This document shows, in pieces, positions 7,133-42,662 of a DNA stretch of 64,000 nt (within the stretch, counting starts at the first letter, position 1; each line of letters starts with the position of its first letter). The stretch lies in the NCBI RefSeq assembly GCF_055900595.2, contig NZ_CM148325.1; one strand, written 5' to 3'. A model generated the notes under the pieces. That model made no database searches. It saw nothing but the letters and a program-made list of their open reading frames with translations, and was not told the DNA's origin. Made by a program: the position numbers and the translations under genes.

Positions 7133-7160
7133 GGGGCGTGATTATCATGCCCCTTTTTTT
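7133..7160 (+). terminator. Hairpin plus T7 run abutting the stop of the convergent rhomboid-propeller ORF
   Basis: ggggcgtgat / atcatgcccc imperfect stem followed by ttttttt; the T-run overlaps the TAA stop (reverse strand) of ORF 7159..9096. Confidence 0.45.
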
Positions 7161-9096
7161 ACGGTTCAGGGATACAAGCCACATCGCCATATTGGGGATG
7201 CCGAATAATTGCCTGCGGATCAAGCGAGCGCGTCCTGTCCATTTGGATTAACCCGTTCTTCGCCATAACAAATATCTTTCTACCATCCGCTGAAAAACGA
7301 AGATGATTAACGTAGCTGGCAGGATAAACGCCAATAATCTGCCCGGCATTAATATTGAGCAGGATGACATAACCTTGCAGGCCATATGACACCAACGCTA
7401 AATACTGACCGTCCGGGCTAATACCCTCAACAGAATAAACGCTCCTGCTACACCATTGCGTCATAATGCTGGCTTGTTGATCCCCTGTGCTTATACCTGA
7501 AATCCCCTGACTATCGGCAAAAATAACCTCACCATTTTTTGGTCGGAATCCCATCGCAGAAACGACACCACGCGCATCACCTGCGGGAAAATCTTCTTTC
7601 TGATGCGTGATGGTATTGATCCGCACGATGTTACCTCTGCCTGCTCCCGGAACCAGTAATGTTTTTTCATCCGGGGAAAGTGCCATAACCCAGGCGCCTG
7701 GTTTACCGCTCGTCCCCGTCCCGTCGTATTTCTCCAGTGGGATATCCGCCACATGCTGATAAGTCACCAGATCAATCGCTGACACACTATTACTGGTGCG
7801 ATTCATCACCCAGGCTTTTGTGCCATCACGCGAGAGGATAAGGCTGTCAGGATGGGCGCCGGTGGTAATCGACTGAATAATCTCCCCCGTCGCCACGTTA
7901 ATGACCGATACTGCATTCGCTTCAAATGAAGTCGCATACAGCAACTTTTCATCGGGGCTTAACACCAGCGATCTGACGCCCTGATCTTTACAGCCACCAC
8001 AATGTTTGACTGACTTTTCTTTCGCTATGGGCGCTGTAAAGGTATGCAGGATTTTCTTTTGTCCGAGGTCGAAAACAACAATACTGTTCGTGTTTTCAAT
8101 TGCGGCATAAAACGTATTACCATCCCGACTGATCGCCATATCATGGATATCGGCAATCTCAGCGAGCAAATCACCACTGGCCTGTTCACGACTTACCGGA
8201 GCGGGTAATGTTTCCCTGAGGGCGTTGCGTTCCTCCGCTAACTGCTGCTTTTTATGCCGTCGCTCTTGTTCAATCTCCTGCGGATAAAACTCTTCACGCA
8301 GGCTTTGCCTGACCTGCAAAACTGATTCATCAATCTGCTGCTGCACAAGCCAGATAGCCCCGGTCAGTAGAAGACTACCCGCAACAATAATCCCGCCTTC
8401 CGTAACAAGTCGGTTTTGCCCAGATAAACGCGCACTCAGCCAACCCAACGCGCCCCCCGCAATCAGGCCGCCAATGTGGCAAGCGTTATCTATTCCTGTT
8501 TGCCGGGTACCATACAACAGTGTCAGCGCCACCATACCCAACAGAGAAAATACTCGCCGCTGGTTTTTATGGTGTGTACCCGCACCTGAAGAAAGCTGTG
8601 TTGCTATCGCAGCGCCAGCTATTCCCATAATTGCCCCGGATGCCCCAACGCTGATGACTATCTGCTCACTTTCGCGTAACGCATAACAGGCGCTGATGAG
8701 CCCACCAAAGATGCCGGAGAATAACCAGATAATCAGGAGTCGCCATTTCCCCAGTATCCGTTCCGCCACTGTCCCCACCACCAGGAGTGCAAACATATTC
8801 ATCAGCAAATGGGAAAAACTACTGTGCAGAAAAACACTGCTCAATAAGCGCCAGGGTTCACCCGACAACGTGAGAGAGGCAACGTTAGCGCCGAGATGGA
8901 TGAGTGCGGATTGATCGACTTCTTCATAACTCATCCATTGTGCGAGGTAACAAAATATCCCAACACATAGCGCAAAAAGGATCAGGGTTATTGCGGGTAA
9001 TTGAACATTTAACGGCTTAACCGAAGATGCAGACATAAGGTGATTCTTCCTTGAAAAGACAGGTAAAAAAGCATTTTTCCCGTGTGCAGTTATCAT
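7159..9096 (-). CDS. Rhomboid-family intramembrane serine protease fused to a C-terminal beta-propeller-like domain (YVTN/lactonase-type repeats); uncharacterised
   Basis: 645-aa ORF. Rhomboid signatures seen directly: WRLLSSVFLHSSFSHLLMNM, catalytic-Ser motif GASGAIMG, catalytic-His motif HIGGLIAGG, about 7 hydrophobic segments. C-terminal ~330 aa carry repeated S(P/R)DG...hydrophobic-strand units (SRDGNTFYAA, SPDEKLLYAT, SRDGTKAWVM, SPDEKTLLVP, SPDGQYLALV, SADGRKIFVM). Alternative start at the ATG at 9036 (625 aa) has a better SD (aggaag). Confidence 0.8.
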   Translation of the reverse strand: MITAHGKNAFLPVFSRKNHLMSASSVKPLNVQLPAITLILFALCVGIFCYLAQWMSYEEVDQSALIHLGANVASLTLSGEPWRLLSSVFLHSSFSHLLMNMFALLVVGTVAERILGKWRLLIIWLFSGIFGGLISACYALRESEQIVISVGASGAIMGIAGAAIATQLSSGAGTHHKNQRRVFSLLGMVALTLLYGTRQTGIDNACHIGGLIAGGALGWLSARLSGQNRLVTEGGIIVAGSLLLTGAIWLVQQQIDESVLQVRQSLREEFYPQEIEQERRHKKQQLAEERNALRETLPAPVSREQASGDLLAEIADIHDMAISRDGNTFYAAIENTNSIVVFDLGQKKILHTFTAPIAKEKSVKHCGGCKDQGVRSLVLSPDEKLLYATSFEANAVSVINVATGEIIQSITTGAHPDSLILSRDGTKAWVMNRTSNSVSAIDLVTYQHVADIPLEKYDGTGTSGKPGAWVMALSPDEKTLLVPGAGRGNIVRINTITHQKEDFPAGDARGVVSAMGFRPKNGEVIFADSQGISGISTGDQQASIMTQWCSRSVYSVEGISPDGQYLALVSYGLQGYVILLNINAGQIIGVYPASYVNHLRFSADGRKIFVMAKNGLIQMDRTRSLDPQAIIRHPQYGDVACIPEP

Positions 9097-35862: not shown

Positions 35863-36816
35863 GTGGATAGTAATAATCAAATTGAACCCTGTTTAAGCAG
35901 AAAGTCGTCAGAAGGTAAACCACAAATATTTACAACCTTACGAAATATTGATCTTAACCTTCTGACTATTTTTGAAGCTGTGTATGTGCATAAAGGGATC
36001 GTTAATGCAGCGAAAGTGCTTAATCTGACACCCTCGGCAATCAGTCAGTCTATTCAGAAACTGCGCGTTATATTCCCTGACCCATTGTTTATTCGCAAAG
36101 GCCAGGGCGTCACTCCTACTGCATTTGCAATGCATTTGCATGAGTATATCAGTCAGGGCCTTGAATCCATTCTCGGCGCGCTGGATATCGAAGGAACCTA
36201 TGATAAGCAACGAACGATAACTATCGCGACCACCCCCTCGGTCGGAGCCCTGGTCCTTCCTGTCATCTATCGGGCGATTAAATCTCACTATCCGCAGCTT
36301 TTACTGCGCACCCCCCCCATCAGCGACGCGGAAAACCAACTCAGTCAGTTTCAAACCGATCTCATCATCGATAACATGTTTTGCACCAATCGTACGGTGC
36401 AACATCATGTTCTGTTCACCGACAATATGGTGTTAATTTGCCGCGAGGGAAATCCGCTACTCTCTTTAGAAGATGACAGAGAGACTATTGACAACGCTGC
36501 GCATATACTCCTGTTACCGGAAGGGCAAAATTTCAGCGGTCTGCGGCAGAGAGTTCAAGAGATGTTTCCGGACCGGCAAATCAGTTTCACCAGCTACAAC
36601 ATTTTGACAATCGCTGCACTGGTTGCCAACAGTGACATGTTAGCGATTATTCCCAGCCGTTTTTATAACCTGTTTAGCCGTTGCTGGCCGCTGGAAAAAC
36701 TGCCTTTTCCGTCCTTAAATGAGGAGCAAGTAGATTTCTCTATCCACTACAACAAATTCAGCCTGCGTGATCCCATCCTGCACGGGGTAATAGATGTTAT
36801 CCGTAATGCATTTTGA
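35863..36816 (+). CDS. ybeF: LysR-family transcriptional regulator
   Basis: 317 aa; GTG start with SD ggag; N-terminal HTH (LNLLTIFEAVYVHKGIVNAAKVLNLTPSAISQSIQKLR). Confidence 0.85.
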   Translation: MDSNNQIEPCLSRKSSEGKPQIFTTLRNIDLNLLTIFEAVYVHKGIVNAAKVLNLTPSAISQSIQKLRVIFPDPLFIRKGQGVTPTAFAMHLHEYISQGLESILGALDIEGTYDKQRTITIATTPSVGALVLPVIYRAIKSHYPQLLLRTPPISDAENQLSQFQTDLIIDNMFCTNRTVQHHVLFTDNMVLICREGNPLLSLEDDRETIDNAAHILLLPEGQNFSGLRQRVQEMFPDRQISFTSYNILTIAALVANSDMLAIIPSRFYNLFSRCWPLEKLPFPSLNEEQVDFSIHYNKFSLRDPILHGVIDVIRNAF

Positions 36817-37024
36817 AAAAGTATTGTTACAGCCAGATCACAGCGAAGAACGAAAAAATGGCACAATCCAACAACAATTTTACATTTTCGCGACCGCTTT
36901 GGCTGCTTTCAGGTCCGTTTCAATGATATACTGCCAGTCGTTAATTCAAAAATAGTTGATAATTACAACAATCTATTGAATTGAAACGCTTTCCTTCGTA
37001 ATTCGCAACTGGAACACGCACGCT

Positions 37025-39306: not shown

Positions 39307-39690
39307 GTGTTACAACTTCTTTTAGCAGTTTTTATTGGCGGTGGTACGGGAAGCGTGGCGAGATGGCTGTTAAGTATGCGATTTAACCCGCTGCATCAGG
39401 CGATTCCGTTGGGGACGCTGGCTGCAAACCTGATTGGGGCATTCATCATAGGAATGGGATTCGCCTGGTTTAGCAGGATGACGAACATTGATCCAGTGTG
39501 GAAAGTATTAATCACCACCGGATTTTGTGGCGGTCTAACAACCTTCTCAACATTTTCGGCAGAAGTGGTGTTTTTGTTACAAGAGGGCCGCTTTGGCTGG
39601 GCATTACTGAACGTTTTCGTCAACCTTCTGGGGTCTTTTGCCATGACCGCACTGGCTTTCTGGCTGTTTTCGGCCTCAACCGCACACTAA
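39307..39690 (+). CDS. crcB: Fluoride ion channel CrcB/FluC
   Basis: 127 aa; four TM segments; conserved GxxGGxTTFSTF motif ([12 protein letters not shown]). Confidence 0.95.
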
Positions 39691-39694
39691 AGAC

Positions 39695-39726
39695 CAAAAA
39701 AAACCCGCTGATTAAGCGGGTTTTGA
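39695..39726. terminator. Bidirectional intrinsic terminator between convergent crcB and cspE
   Basis: aaaaaaaa-cccgctgattaagcggg-tttt hairpin with flanking A/T runs. Confidence 0.8.
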
Positions 39727-39743
39727 ATTCTTGCTGACGTATC

Positions 39744-39953
39744 TTACAGAGCGATTACGTTTGCAGCAGAAGGGCCTTTGGCACCGTTAGTGATTTCGAA
39801 CTCTACGCGCTGACCTTCAGCAAGAGTTTTAAAACCATTAGTCTGGATTGCAGAGAAGTGTACGAACACGTCTTTGCTGCCGTCTTCCGGAGTAATGAAA
39901 CCGAATCCTTTGGACTCATTAAACCACTTAACGTTACCTTTAATCTTAGACAT
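39744..39953 (-). CDS. cspE: Cold-shock-domain protein CspE
   Basis: 69 aa from the ATG at 39953: [20 protein letters not shown] with RNP1/RNP2 motifs; the ORF track extends further upstream. Confidence 0.95.
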
Positions 39954-40127
39954 CAAAATTACCTTTACATGAAAAATAGACACAAATGCTGTGTCGGTTA
40001 CCAGTACACCAATTGTGGTACGCTTTGTCCAGTGCAACTTTACTAAAAAGTGATAAAAGTCGCGTTATTTTTGATGTTAATTATTTTAGTCATTGATTTT
40101 AAAGAAGTTACTAAAATTTCATTTGTC

Positions 40128-40688
40128 TCAAAACTGAAAGCGCATCCAGGCAAAGTACACATTGCCATTGTTATAGGTACCCGGAATGTAGGTCATCTGA
40201 AAAGTCACTGGACCATAACCCACAGAGGCCAATGGCAGTAGAACCGGGAGAGGGATGTAATTCCAGTTATCGCGTGCCGTTACGCCAGCGGTGAATCCCA
40301 GTCCTAAATGAAAATTTTCATCCGCCAGCGGTCGCCAGGTACTTTCCCATCCGTATCCGGCAATCGGTTCCCATTTGTTCCACGAGTCCTTAAATGCCAT
40401 GGCATACAGGCCATGCCAGTTTCCTTTTTCATCCCAACGCGACTGACCAAAACCGCCCCCCCACGGTCGCTCGTTATAGCGATCGGTTTTTTCTTTGTCG
40501 TAAGCGAAACGAGCATGCCAGGTGATGGCAGGAATATATAAATCATAATGTTCAGGCTGTTGCCAGGTTTGTGTAATATTTTCTCCAAACGTTGTCATCC
40601 ACTCATCTGCGTTAGCTAAAACTTTACCAACGCTGATTAACTGAATAAAAACAAAGGAAAATATAGCGACATATTTACTCACGTTCAT
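40128..40688 (-). CDS. pagP: Lipid A palmitoyltransferase (outer-membrane beta-barrel)
   Basis: 186 aa from the ATG at 40688; signal peptide [25 protein letters not shown]; full-length match to the PagP family. Confidence 0.9.
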
Positions 40689-41173
40689 TTGTGACCATAA
40701 AACATTTATCAAAAATCTACTACTAGCATAGCAAAACTACAATTAACATAACCTTAATAGACCCAACATGAAGAATAATCTGAATAGCTGCTCTATTTAT
40801 TTCCGCTTGTTCAAGTTAAATATTTCCGCGCATCGATTAAAGATGATGCGTCGTTTTCTGCGATGGGAATAGTCAAAAAAGAAAAACCAAGTCTTTTTTG
40901 ATGACAAAATGCAATCAAAGAAAAATTATTTTATTTTTTAACTAGATACAACAATCATCTTAACGAAGTATATAATATATATCGTCAACCCATGCTCATG
41001 GTAGATTATTTTATGAGCACACAACCGCAGCTAACACCATTGCAATTAACAAATTTGCATCAATCCACCATCAATTTACACACATTATTATGTGATAATT
41101 GCCAACCGCTAAATATGCGTTTTGTTATCTATGTATAAAAACAGCAACTTCAATGTCTTAATGGCAGTTTTTC

Positions 41174-41187
41174 TTGATTTTAATCAG
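41174..41187 (+). promoter_or_regulatory. FNR-like site (TTGAT-N4-ATCAg) upstream of dcuC
   Basis: ttgattttaatcag, about 90-100 bp upstream of the dcuC ATG; dcuC is known to be anaerobically induced via FNR. The assignment is by consensus match only. Confidence 0.45.
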
Positions 41188-41276
41188 CATTCACCGCCAA
41201 TTTATTGGGCATATTTTTTCCTTAAGCTTTAGGAATTTTTTATTATTTACCTTGGGGCCTGGAGACAGGAAAAATT

Positions 41277-42662
41277 ATGCTGACATTCATTGAACTCCTT
41301 ATTGGGGTTGTGGTTATTGTGGGTGTAGCTCGCTACATCATTAAAGGGTATTCCGCCACCGGCGTGTTATTTGTCGGTGGCCTGTTATTGCTGATTATCA
41401 GTGCCATTATGGGGCACAAAGTGTTACCGTCCAGCCAGGCTTCAACAGGCTACAGCGCCACGGATATCGTTGAATACGTTAAAATATTGCTAATGAGCCG
41501 CGGCGGCGACCTCGGCATGATGATTATGATGCTGTGTGGCTTTGCCGCTTACATGACCCATATCGGCGCGAATGATATGGTGGTCAAGCTGGCGTCAAAA
41601 CCATTGCAGTATATTAACTCCCCTTACCTGCTGATGATTGCCGCCTATTTTGTCGCCTGTCTGATGTCTCTGGCCGTCTCTTCCGCAACCGGTCTGGGTG
41701 TTTTGCTGATGGCAACCCTGTTTCCGGTGATGGTAAACGTTGGTATCAGTCGTGGCGCAGCAGCTGCAATTTGTGCCTCTCCAGCGGCGATTATTCTTGC
41801 ACCGACTTCAGGGGATGTGGTGCTGGCGGCGCAGGCTTCCGAAATGTCGCTGATTGATTTCGCCTTCAAAACGACGCTGCCTATCTCGATTGCTGCGATT
41901 ATCGGCATGGCGATCGCCCACTTCTTCTGGCAACGTTATCTGGATAAAAAAGAGCACATCTCTCATGAAATGTTAGATGTCAGTGAAATCACCACCACTG
42001 CCCCTGCGTTTTACGCCATTCTGCCGTTCACGCCGATCATCGGAGTACTGATTTTTGACGGCAAATGGGGTCCGCAATTACACATCATCACAATTCTGGT
42101 GATCTGTATGCTGATTGCCTCCATTCTGGAGTTCATTCGCAGCTTTAATACTCAGAAAGTGTTCTCGGGCCTGGAAGTGGCTTATCGCGGGATGGCAGAT
42201 GCGTTTGCTAACGTGGTGATGCTGCTGGTTGCCGCTGGGGTATTCGCTCAGGGGCTTAGCACCATCGGCTTTATTCAAAGTCTGATTTCTATCGCCACTT
42301 CGTTTGGTTCGGCGAGTATCATCCTGATGCTGGTATTGGTGATCCTGACAATGCTGGCAGCAGTCACGACCGGTTCAGGCAATGCGCCGTTTTATGCGTT
42401 TGTTGAGATGATCCCGAAACTGGCGCACTCTTCCGGCATTAACCCGGCGTATTTGACTATCCCAATGCTGCAGGCGTCAAACCTCGGTCGTACCCTGTCA
42501 CCCGTTTCTGGCGTAGTCGTTGCGGTTGCCGGGATGGCGAAAATCTCACCATTTGAAGTCGTAAAACGCACCTCGGTGCCGGTGCTTGTTGGGCTGGTGA
42601 TTGTTATCGTTGCTACAGAGCTGATGGTGCCAGGAACGGCAGCCGCGGTAACAGGCAAGTAA
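41277..42662 (+). CDS. dcuC: Anaerobic C4-dicarboxylate transporter DcuC
   Basis: 461 aa polytopic membrane protein; SD ggagacagga; synteny with pagP and dpiA. Confidence 0.9.
   Translation: MLTFIELLIGVVVIVGVARYIIKGYSATGVLFVGGLLLLIISAIMGHKVLPSSQASTGYSATDIVEYVKILLMSRGGDLGMMIMMLCGFAAYMTHIGANDMVVKLASKPLQYINSPYLLMIAAYFVACLMSLAVSSATGLGVLLMATLFPVMVNVGISRGAAAAICASPAAIILAPTSGDVVLAAQASEMSLIDFAFKTTLPISIAAIIGMAIAHFFWQRYLDKKEHISHEMLDVSEITTTAPAFYAILPFTPIIGVLIFDGKWGPQLHIITILVICMLIASILEFIRSFNTQKVFSGLEVAYRGMADAFANVVMLLVAAGVFAQGLSTIGFIQSLISIATSFGSASIILMLVLVILTMLAAVTTGSGNAPFYAFVEMIPKLAHSSGINPAYLTIPMLQASNLGRTLSPVSGVVVAVAGMAKISPFEVVKRTSVPVLVGLVIVIVATELMVPGTAAAVTGK

Follow-up and report, generated by a model that had tools for sequence, protein, structure and literature searches.

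What does the long, AT-rich stretch of DNA that separates pagP from dcuC in E. coli contain, and does its content belong to the two flanking genes or to something else encoded between them? Within the stretch of E. coli DNA that we analysed (64,000 nucleotides of contig NZ_CM148325.1, here called the window), pagP lies on the minus strand with its ATG at 40688 and dcuC lies on the plus strand with its ATG at 41277, leaving a divergent spacer of 588 bp. Both genes are familiar ones. The regulation of pagP by PhoP, H-NS and SlyA is well studied, and dcuC encodes the textbook FNR-activated anaerobic carrier of succinate and C4-dicarboxylates.

An earlier note on this DNA had drawn attention to the size and composition of the spacer, to an FNR-like site upstream of dcuC and to a short ORF, and had read them as signs of dense regulatory content or of an unannotated small RNA or peptide. 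The spacer, the site and the ORF are all present at the positions given there. From the features of the sequence, the degree to which they are conserved, and ChIP and expression data in the literature, we consider it highly probable that the spacer is the shared control region of pagP and dcuC, with clearly functional content at both of its ends. The features on which this reading is built, together with those that were considered and set aside, are listed in Table 1.

Table 1. Features of the pagP–dcuC spacer, in order of position in the window.
Feature	Position	Strand	Basis or remark
pagP–dcuC divergent intergenic region	40689..41276		588 bp, 31.5% GC
Putative pagP -10 hexamer TATGCT	40725..40730	-	Predicted; PhoP-like box lies 12 nt upstream
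PhoP-box-like direct repeat TATTAA-ggtta-TGTTAA, pagP promoter	40743..40759	-	Motif scan, 9/12 to consensus
Variable AT-rich filler, putative H-NS binding tract	40761..41045		Alignment and diversity
Terminator-like hairpin followed by CGTTTTCTGC	40828..40851	+	Terminator scan; not conserved, judged incidental
Promoter-like ATGACA-17-AATTAT, SELEX-listed 'constitutive' dcuC promoter	40901..40929	+	Promoter scan and genomic SELEX study
41-codon ORF of the earlier note (48 codons from 40992)	41013..41138	+	Judged a chance ORF
Block conserved within E. coli, with ArcA-like repeat TGTTATCTATGTATAA at 41123..41138	41046..41173		Divergence and motif scan
FNR box TTGATTTTAATCAG, activator site of the dcuC promoter	41174..41187	+	9/10 to consensus
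Predicted dcuC -10 hexamer CATATT, class II FNR-dependent promoter	41210..41215	+	Predicted
dcuC ribosome-binding region GGAGACAGGA	41261..41270	+	Read from sequence

Results

Length, composition and conservation of the spacer

The pagP–dcuC spacer is the longest of the 52 intergenic regions in the window, for which the median length is 113 bp. Its GC content is 31.5%, compared with 50.1% for the window as a whole, and only 0.16% of the 588-bp segments that can be taken from the window are as AT-rich, every one of them overlapping the pagP–dcuC locus. This locus is also the only place in the window where the GC content is 34% or lower over 588 bp. As the longest intergenic region and the lowest-GC 588-bp stretch, the spacer deserves its description as unusually long and very AT-rich. 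Its counterpart in MG1655 (NC_000913.3, 655969..656556) is likewise 588 bp long and has no annotated feature inside. The window shows 100% identity to E. coli strain E400634. A 751-bp query found the spacer once per genome in 5,413 of the 5,426 complete E. coli genomes, the median being one place.

For comparison between genera, 80 Enterobacteriaceae dcuC loci were fetched, 46 of which gave a pagP–dcuC spacer, making 47 syntenic spacers with that of the window. Their lengths range from 281 to 899 bp. The spacers of Klebsiella and Raoultella are 281–307 bp long, those of Salmonella and Citrobacter about 400–465 bp and most of those of Escherichia 558–588 bp, although one Escherichia locus, whose pagP is incomplete, has a spacer of only 422 bp. 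In Enterobacter a few spacers extend up to 899 bp. Alignment across genera covers the two ends of the spacer only. The expectation of dense regulatory content therefore holds for these two ends, and fails for the middle, which cannot be aligned between genera.

A conserved FNR box and the dcuC promoter

The sequence TTGATTTTAATCAG, centred at 41180.5, matches 9 of the 10 defined positions of the FNR consensus TTGAT-N4-ATCAA. Matches of this quality occur eight times in the window, where 2.98 are expected by chance; a 9/10 match is by itself not significant, and the weight of this site comes instead from its position, its conservation and published ChIP data. A box is found in all 47 syntenic Enterobacteriaceae spacers, with a 9/10 match in 40 of them and an 8/10 match in the other seven. 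It lies 92–107 bp from the dcuC ATG in 43 spacers and farther away in four (147, 153, 334 bp and similar); in one or more of these four the leader carries an insertion.

In the study of Myers et al. (2013; PMC3688515), dcuC belongs to the Category 1 operons, those that FNR activates directly. The ChIP-seq summit is at 655,298, and their supplement lists CTGATTAAAATCAA as the ChIP-bound motif for 'dcuC/pagP', with a PWM score of 12.38. In the same study, dcuC expression in an fnr mutant was 0.0498 of that in the wild type, a drop of about 20-fold. The listed motif is the window site read on the opposite strand, and when the summit is converted to window coordinates (using an offset of 777 to NC_000913.3) it falls at 41170, 10 bp from the centre of the box. 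A separate dcuC-lacZ fusion has also been reported to be FNR-dependent. We conclude that the FNR site is real and conserved, and that it is already known from the work of Myers et al. (2013).

The box also stands at a fixed distance from a second conserved element. In 45 of the 47 spacers a regular-expression search places the first base of a CA(C/T)ATT hexamer exactly 29.5 bp downstream of the box centre, and the remaining two have CAGATT at what was judged by eye to be an equal offset. Promoters of class II carry the FNR box at -41.5 and the -10 hexamer at -12 to -7. The fixed 29.5-bp spacing is that of the class II geometry and would put the dcuC -10 hexamer at 41210..41215, with a predicted transcription start at about 41222. 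The FNR-like site singled out in the earlier note is conserved and, at a constant offset from the hexamer, well placed. The FNR reading of the note is correct, but the site had already been published as bound in ChIP-seq.

Farther downstream, AGGA (41267..41270) ends 6 nt short of the dcuC ATG and, as read from the sequence, would serve as the ribosome-binding site; 'GACAGG(G/A)' in this region is kept across genera (alignment A1). Regarding the transcription start, Myers et al. (2013; PMC3688515) remark of dcuC 'TSS not in peak region', which implies that a start site then on record lay elsewhere in the spacer. For sigma-70, a single ChIP peak is listed in the spacer, and it falls at the pagP end, not at 41215.

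A promoter scan gave one promoter-like site in the spacer, against 4.3 in shuffled controls. The element ATGACA-17-AATTAT, which a genomic SELEX study counts among 'constitutive' promoters, for dcuC, is probably not functional in vivo, and its -35 element varies among E. coli strains.

By the available tests, then, the dcuC side of the spacer is a class II FNR-activated promoter whose start position is predicted. Under anaerobiosis an FNR dimer would bind the box, with its centre about 41.5 bp upstream of the predicted start, and would there contact RNA polymerase seated on the weak -10 hexamer CATATT. The resulting dcuC mRNA would carry a leader (5' UTR) of about 55 nt.

The pagP end of the spacer

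About 75 bp adjoining pagP can be aligned across genera, and this end of the spacer (about 40689..40760) would form a PhoP-type pagP promoter. Using the PhoP box consensus (T/G)GTTTA-N5-(T/G)GTTTA, positioned at or near -35, we identified a direct repeat, TATTAA-ggtta-TGTTAA, which overlies a block conserved across genera, TGTTAAGG. That block corresponds in position to the PhoP box of Salmonella pagP, CTGTTTATAGTTTGTTAAG, which has been mapped by DNase footprinting. The repeat is thus our candidate for the PhoP box of E. coli pagP. The TATGCT hexamer downstream of it would be the -10 element, and on this basis we infer a pagP transcription start at about 40718. A published sigma-70 ChIP peak at 655,742 converts to window position 40726, on the TATGCT hexamer. 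The pagP side of the spacer matches the known pagP promoter, which is silenced by H-NS and controlled by PhoP and SlyA.

The middle of the spacer and H-NS

Between the two promoter ends the spacer behaves very differently. Its middle cannot be aligned outside Escherichia and is missing in Klebsiella and Raoultella. In the bin 40897..41045 the window strain diverges by 16–17% from a B2 strain and an O157-like strain, compared with 8–9% at the third codon positions of dcuC. Nucleotide diversity among 10 E. coli strains is 0.056 at 40761..40880 and 0.131 at 40881..41025, compared with 0.015–0.026 in the flanks. Divergence in part of the middle is thus at or above the rate at third codon positions in the neighbouring genes, and we judge the central stretch of about 285 bp to be unconstrained. 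This is evidence that roughly half of the long spacer evolves without constraint.

Binding of H-NS to the dcuC–pagP spacer is recorded in the genomic SELEX study. In addition, pagP has been reported to be derepressed 18-fold in an hns mutant and to be SlyA-dependent, with SlyA acting as the antagonist. The 'H-NS-like composition' remarked on in the earlier note fits both the SELEX binding and the 18-fold derepression. Within the spacer, 40761..41045 is the predicted H-NS binding tract, and this stretch most likely has no other role. H-NS bound to this AT-rich middle would silence pagP, and SlyA would counteract it.

Conservation within E. coli just upstream of the FNR box

Immediately beyond the variable middle, the picture within E. 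coli changes sharply. In the bin 41046..41195 the window strain differs by 2% from the B2 strain and the O157-like strain, compared with 16–17% in the adjacent bin, and the two bins that together span 41046..41345 diverge by 0.7–2% in the same comparisons. The block 41046..41173, of about 130 bp, diverges 5- to 8-fold less within E. coli than the stretch next to it. It contains the ArcA-like repeat TGTTATCTATGTATAA. According to Park et al. (2013), an ArcA site scoring 15 bits or more lies at some point within the dcuC/crcA spacer, but no ChIP peak was reported for it. Consensus scans of the spacer for CRP, NarL, IHF and SlyA sites and for H-NS nucleation motifs returned weak matches only. The block probably holds auxiliary sites for regulators of dcuC, either ArcA-like or for a nucleoid protein.

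A more ambitious interpretation is that the block is a regulatory module coupling the two promoters, or else that the Escherichia-specific part of the spacer gives rise to a small transcript, possibly Ssr1. A coupling module would agree with published data in which dcuC and pagP vary together in fnr and arcA mutants, and with the rise of the sigma-70 signal at the pagP end under anaerobic conditions. We nevertheless regard this pair of possibilities as unlikely, and prefer auxiliary dcuC sites as the reading of the block. The block is also the only place left in the spacer where something new, though modest, could turn up.

Does the spacer encode a small RNA?

The idea of an unannotated small RNA can be framed in two ways. 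The spacer might encode the Ssr1 RNA of Shigella flexneri, or the terminator-like hairpin at 40828..40851 might end a plus-strand RNA roughly 110 nt long; in either case the targets would be distant ones or the leaders of pagP or dcuC. The hairpin is weak and the one plus-strand structure of its kind, it is intact in K-12-type alleles, and a good -10 element, TACAAT (40738..40743), lies upstream of it. K-12-type alleles are close to those of Shigella. Nevertheless, changes that are not compensated break the hairpin in O157-like strains and in the B2 strain, its 3' arm carrying two to three of them in the B2 strain and PNUSAE/H6.

Neither structure nor homology argues for a small RNA in the spacer. 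Folding is no more stable than that of shuffled controls, with z-scores of -0.32 and +0.50 for the two strands of 40975..41175 and of -0.54 for 40750..40860. RNAalifold, applied to an eight-sequence Escherichia alignment, gave a covariation term of +0.8, which is unfavourable, with one compensated pair out of 26. A scan of 39500..42000 against Rfam at E ≤ 10 found nothing in the spacer except a meaningless snoRNA match. The only true Rfam match in the scanned region is the cspA-type leader of the neighbouring cspE. The annotation of MG1655, which includes validated small RNAs, is empty here, and neither dcuC nor pagP is mentioned in the Term-seq 3'-end tables of Adams (2021).

The paper describing Ssr1 (Wang et al., 2016; PMC4782007) names both flanking genes, as would be expected if Ssr1 maps between them; 'dcuC' occurs in it once, 'pagP' once and 'intergenic' five times. 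Phrase searches of the paper for the wording that would be expected in that case, of the type 'between pagP and dcuC', found none, and the two names may refer to flanking genes, predicted targets or proteome hits. With no Rfam match, no excess folding stability and no covariation, the proposal of a small RNA was not borne out, and we think it quite improbable that the spacer encodes one.

Origin of the additional DNA in Escherichia

The roughly 300 bp by which the Escherichia spacer exceeds that of Klebsiella could in principle be a decayed mobile element or the remnant of a lost gene. The range of lengths among genera and the lineage-specific, AT-rich nature of the middle are compatible with such an origin. 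The spacer is also a recurrent target of IS5 in published laboratory evolution under kanamycin, and one Citrobacter amalonaticus strain has an insertion of a repeat element of about 235 bp in the dcuC leader. Against this, a database search with the middle segment gave no similarity to any phage record, and its matches in a plasmid database were solely to E. coli records containing the same spacer at 93–98% identity. Two of these records are of 113 and 280 kb and six are of 0.7–4.9 Mb, several being chromosome-sized. Since phage similarity is lacking and the plasmid matches are to the same spacer, nothing points to a decayed mobile element. Moreover, the spacer has a median of one place per E. 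coli genome, and neither terminal repeats nor matches to protein families turned up. We therefore give an origin of this kind very little probability.

The short ORF is not supported as a gene

The ORF at 41013..41138 has the translation given in the earlier note, and an in-frame ATG at 40992 would extend it to 48 aa. Its description as unannotated is true of RefSeq and PGAP, although several older GenBank submissions call it a 'hypothetical protein'. If it were translated, it could encode a small protein, or could be a leader ORF that tunes dcuC from a far-upstream promoter. In Escherichia sp. MOD1 and in nine of the 10 E. coli sampled the frame is open for 41–48 codons, its 3' two-thirds fall in DNA conserved inside E. 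coli, and promoter-like elements are found just upstream (ATGACA-17-AATTAT, and TATAAT at 40971..40976). An ORF of this size is, however, to be expected here, as 61% of Markov-1 random sequences matched to it in length and composition contained an ATG-initiated frame of at least 41 codons, the match being to the spacer.

The start of the ORF is not maintained. Among 10 E. coli, ATG is found at 41013 in the window strain only, eight of the others having TTG and one CTG, while the corresponding codon is GGG in E. whittamii and TTT in Escherichia sp. E1V33. The in-frame ATG upstream is replaced by ACG or GTG in some strains. A Shine-Dalgarno sequence is absent at the ORF start, in agreement with the earlier note, which had seen no convincing one. 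The frame fares no better: a 1-bp deletion in the B2 strain shifts it after 17 codons, E. whittamii and E1V33 have indels of 6 bp and 2 bp together with stops, and in the cross-genus spacer alignment the ORF cannot be aligned beyond Escherichia. Conservation of the ORF in enterobacteria, which had been suggested as a check, thus breaks down in these relatives.

The pattern of substitution leads to the same view. Comparison of the ORF codons of the window with those of Escherichia sp. MOD1 gave two synonymous and 12 nonsynonymous changes, with similar results in two control frames, and variable sites are distributed 7/11/9 over codon positions 1/2/3, without an excess at the third position. The ORF has no family match in Pfam or NCBIfam at E ≤ 10. 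The older GenBank calls disagree over its start, giving products of 32, 41, 46 or 48 aa, and PGAP, which does call small proteins in the window, such as YldA, omits it. The small-protein papers that we consulted mention neither dcuC nor pagP.

The suggestion of a peptide gene thus fails at the start codon, in the frame and in the substitution pattern, and we regard translation of 41013..41138, or of 40992..41138, as most improbable. In our judgement the ORF is a chance reading frame that runs from the variable filler into the upstream block; it does not qualify as a gene or as a leader peptide. Its 3' two-thirds share their DNA with the block 41046..41173, and the frame probably stays open in most E. 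coli because that block is constrained for a non-coding reason.

Discussion

The results describe two promoter-bearing ends set apart by a variable middle. The pagP–dcuC finding as a whole is already known, and its significance beyond a tidier annotation is slight. The analysis makes two modest additions. The first is a testable model of the dcuC promoter, in which the spacing from box to hexamer is fixed across 47 species; the second is that the long Escherichia spacer is mostly unconstrained DNA. One candidate small protein can also be removed from consideration.

Comparison with known systems places each part of the spacer. The short ORF resembles the spurious 'hypothetical protein' ORFs of AT-rich DNA in its inconsistent starts, its one-species distribution and its lack of purifying selection; it differs from them in that most E. 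coli keep the frame open. Ssr1 would be the nearest small RNA for comparison, as an intergenic RNA of the very close relative Shigella flexneri whose paper names both flanking genes, but the pagP–dcuC spacer shows no conservation of structure or of a terminator that would support an RNA of this sort.

The dcuC side shares with class II FNR promoters a near-consensus box, a fixed distance of 29.5 bp from it to a weak -10 hexamer, FNR occupancy in vivo and FNR-dependent anaerobic induction of the gene. There is no difference of substance, the -41.5 position at dcuC being derived from the hexamer spacing and not from a 5' end.

The pagP side belongs with promoters that are silenced by H-NS and countersilenced by SlyA and PhoP, such as those of pagP, pagC and ugtL in E. 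coli and Salmonella. AT-rich upstream DNA is common to both, as are repression by H-NS that SlyA antagonises, known from the literature, and a candidate repeat of the PhoP type beside the putative -10 hexamer. Relative to the footprinted box of Salmonella, the E. coli repeat TATTAA-N5-TGTTAA is displaced by one half-site. The pagP–dcuC locus differs from this class in its history, being ancestral and syntenic across Enterobacteriaceae and not horizontally acquired.

A hypervariable spacer core beside a conserved block

The pagP–dcuC spacer is unevenly conserved within E. coli. Its core is hypervariable, with a diversity of 0.13 among ten E. coli strains. In an overlapping bin, the window strain has diverged by 16-17% from a B2 strain and an O157-like strain, which is about twice the divergence at dcuC third codon positions and 5- to 8-fold that of adjacent DNA in the same comparison. 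Against K-12 there are 13 differences, of which 7 cluster within 34 bp. The 130 bp upstream of the FNR box are strongly conserved, with approximately 2% divergence within E. coli, and this block carries tandem CATCAAT repeats as well as an ArcA-like repeat, TGTTATCTATGTATAA.

Positions of features in the window
Feature	Position	Strand or location
Spacer core	40881..41025	
Divergent bin	40897..41045	
Cluster of K-12 differences	40991..41024	
Conserved block	41046..41173	upstream of FNR box
Tandem CATCAAT repeats	41059..41078	in conserved block
ArcA-like repeat		in conserved block
9/10 FNR-consensus match	13772	intergenic, rihA/hscC
9/10 FNR-consensus match	19263	
9/10 FNR-consensus match	27873	
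9/10 FNR-consensus match	37142	
9/10 FNR-consensus match	50391	
9/10 FNR-consensus match	56875	
9/10 FNR-consensus match	63694	intergenic, ybdD/cstA
Rhomboid-family intramembrane protease gene	7158..9035	minus, between lnt and gltI
Segment lacking alignment to APEC O2:K1	35947..36846	
cspE leader and gene	39696..40054	minus
ybdN	59270..60489	

Matches to the FNR consensus at 9 of 10 positions are more frequent in the window than expected (8 observed against 2.98), a number reached in one of 100 shuffles. Besides the dcuC box there are seven, some of them intergenic.

Elsewhere in the window, cspE and its leader score 123 bits against the cspA thermoregulator family (Rfam RF01766; gathering score 78), and the annotated rhomboid-family protease has 625 aa. 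In the B2 strain APEC O2:K1, ybeF is truncated and frameshifted, and a segment of about 900 bp shows no alignment with the window strain. A strain identical to the window has ybdN annotated as a frameshifted pseudogene.

Possible co-regulation of dcuC and pagP

The single sigma-70 ChIP peak listed for the spacer (Myers 2013, PMC3688515) lies at MG1655 U00096.2 position 655,742, which converts to approximately 40726 in the window, on the pagP promoter. Its entry, labelled 'Anaerobic', gives the values 37 and 366, which probably stand for aerobic and anaerobic conditions, respectively. Expression of pagP (crcA) is 3.4-fold lower in an fnr mutant. Together, the peak and this decrease hint at co-regulation of the divergent pair, even though some 460 bp separate the FNR box from pagP.

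Divergence of pagP and spacer insertions

Judged by sequence identity, PagP diverges between genera far more quickly than DcuC does (about 72-87% versus 87-94%), and pagP looks to have decayed in some Escherichia lineages. Full-length PagP identity is just 62% in Escherichia sp. MOD1-EC7003, and in E. coli SCPM-O-B-8794 the match is confined to residues 127-186; the adjoining DcuC is 98-99% identical in both.

In four Enterobacter loci (L015, L032, L043 and L044) the spacers are 700-899 bp long and richer in GC (40-47%), suggesting that they contain an insertion element or an additional small gene. In Citrobacter amalonaticus S646, an insertion of approximately 235 bp in the dcuC leader, directly 3' of the -10 region, separates the FNR promoter from the dcuC start codon and places the FNR box 334 bp from the ATG. 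Its internal inverted repeats resemble an ERIC-type enterobacterial repeat element.
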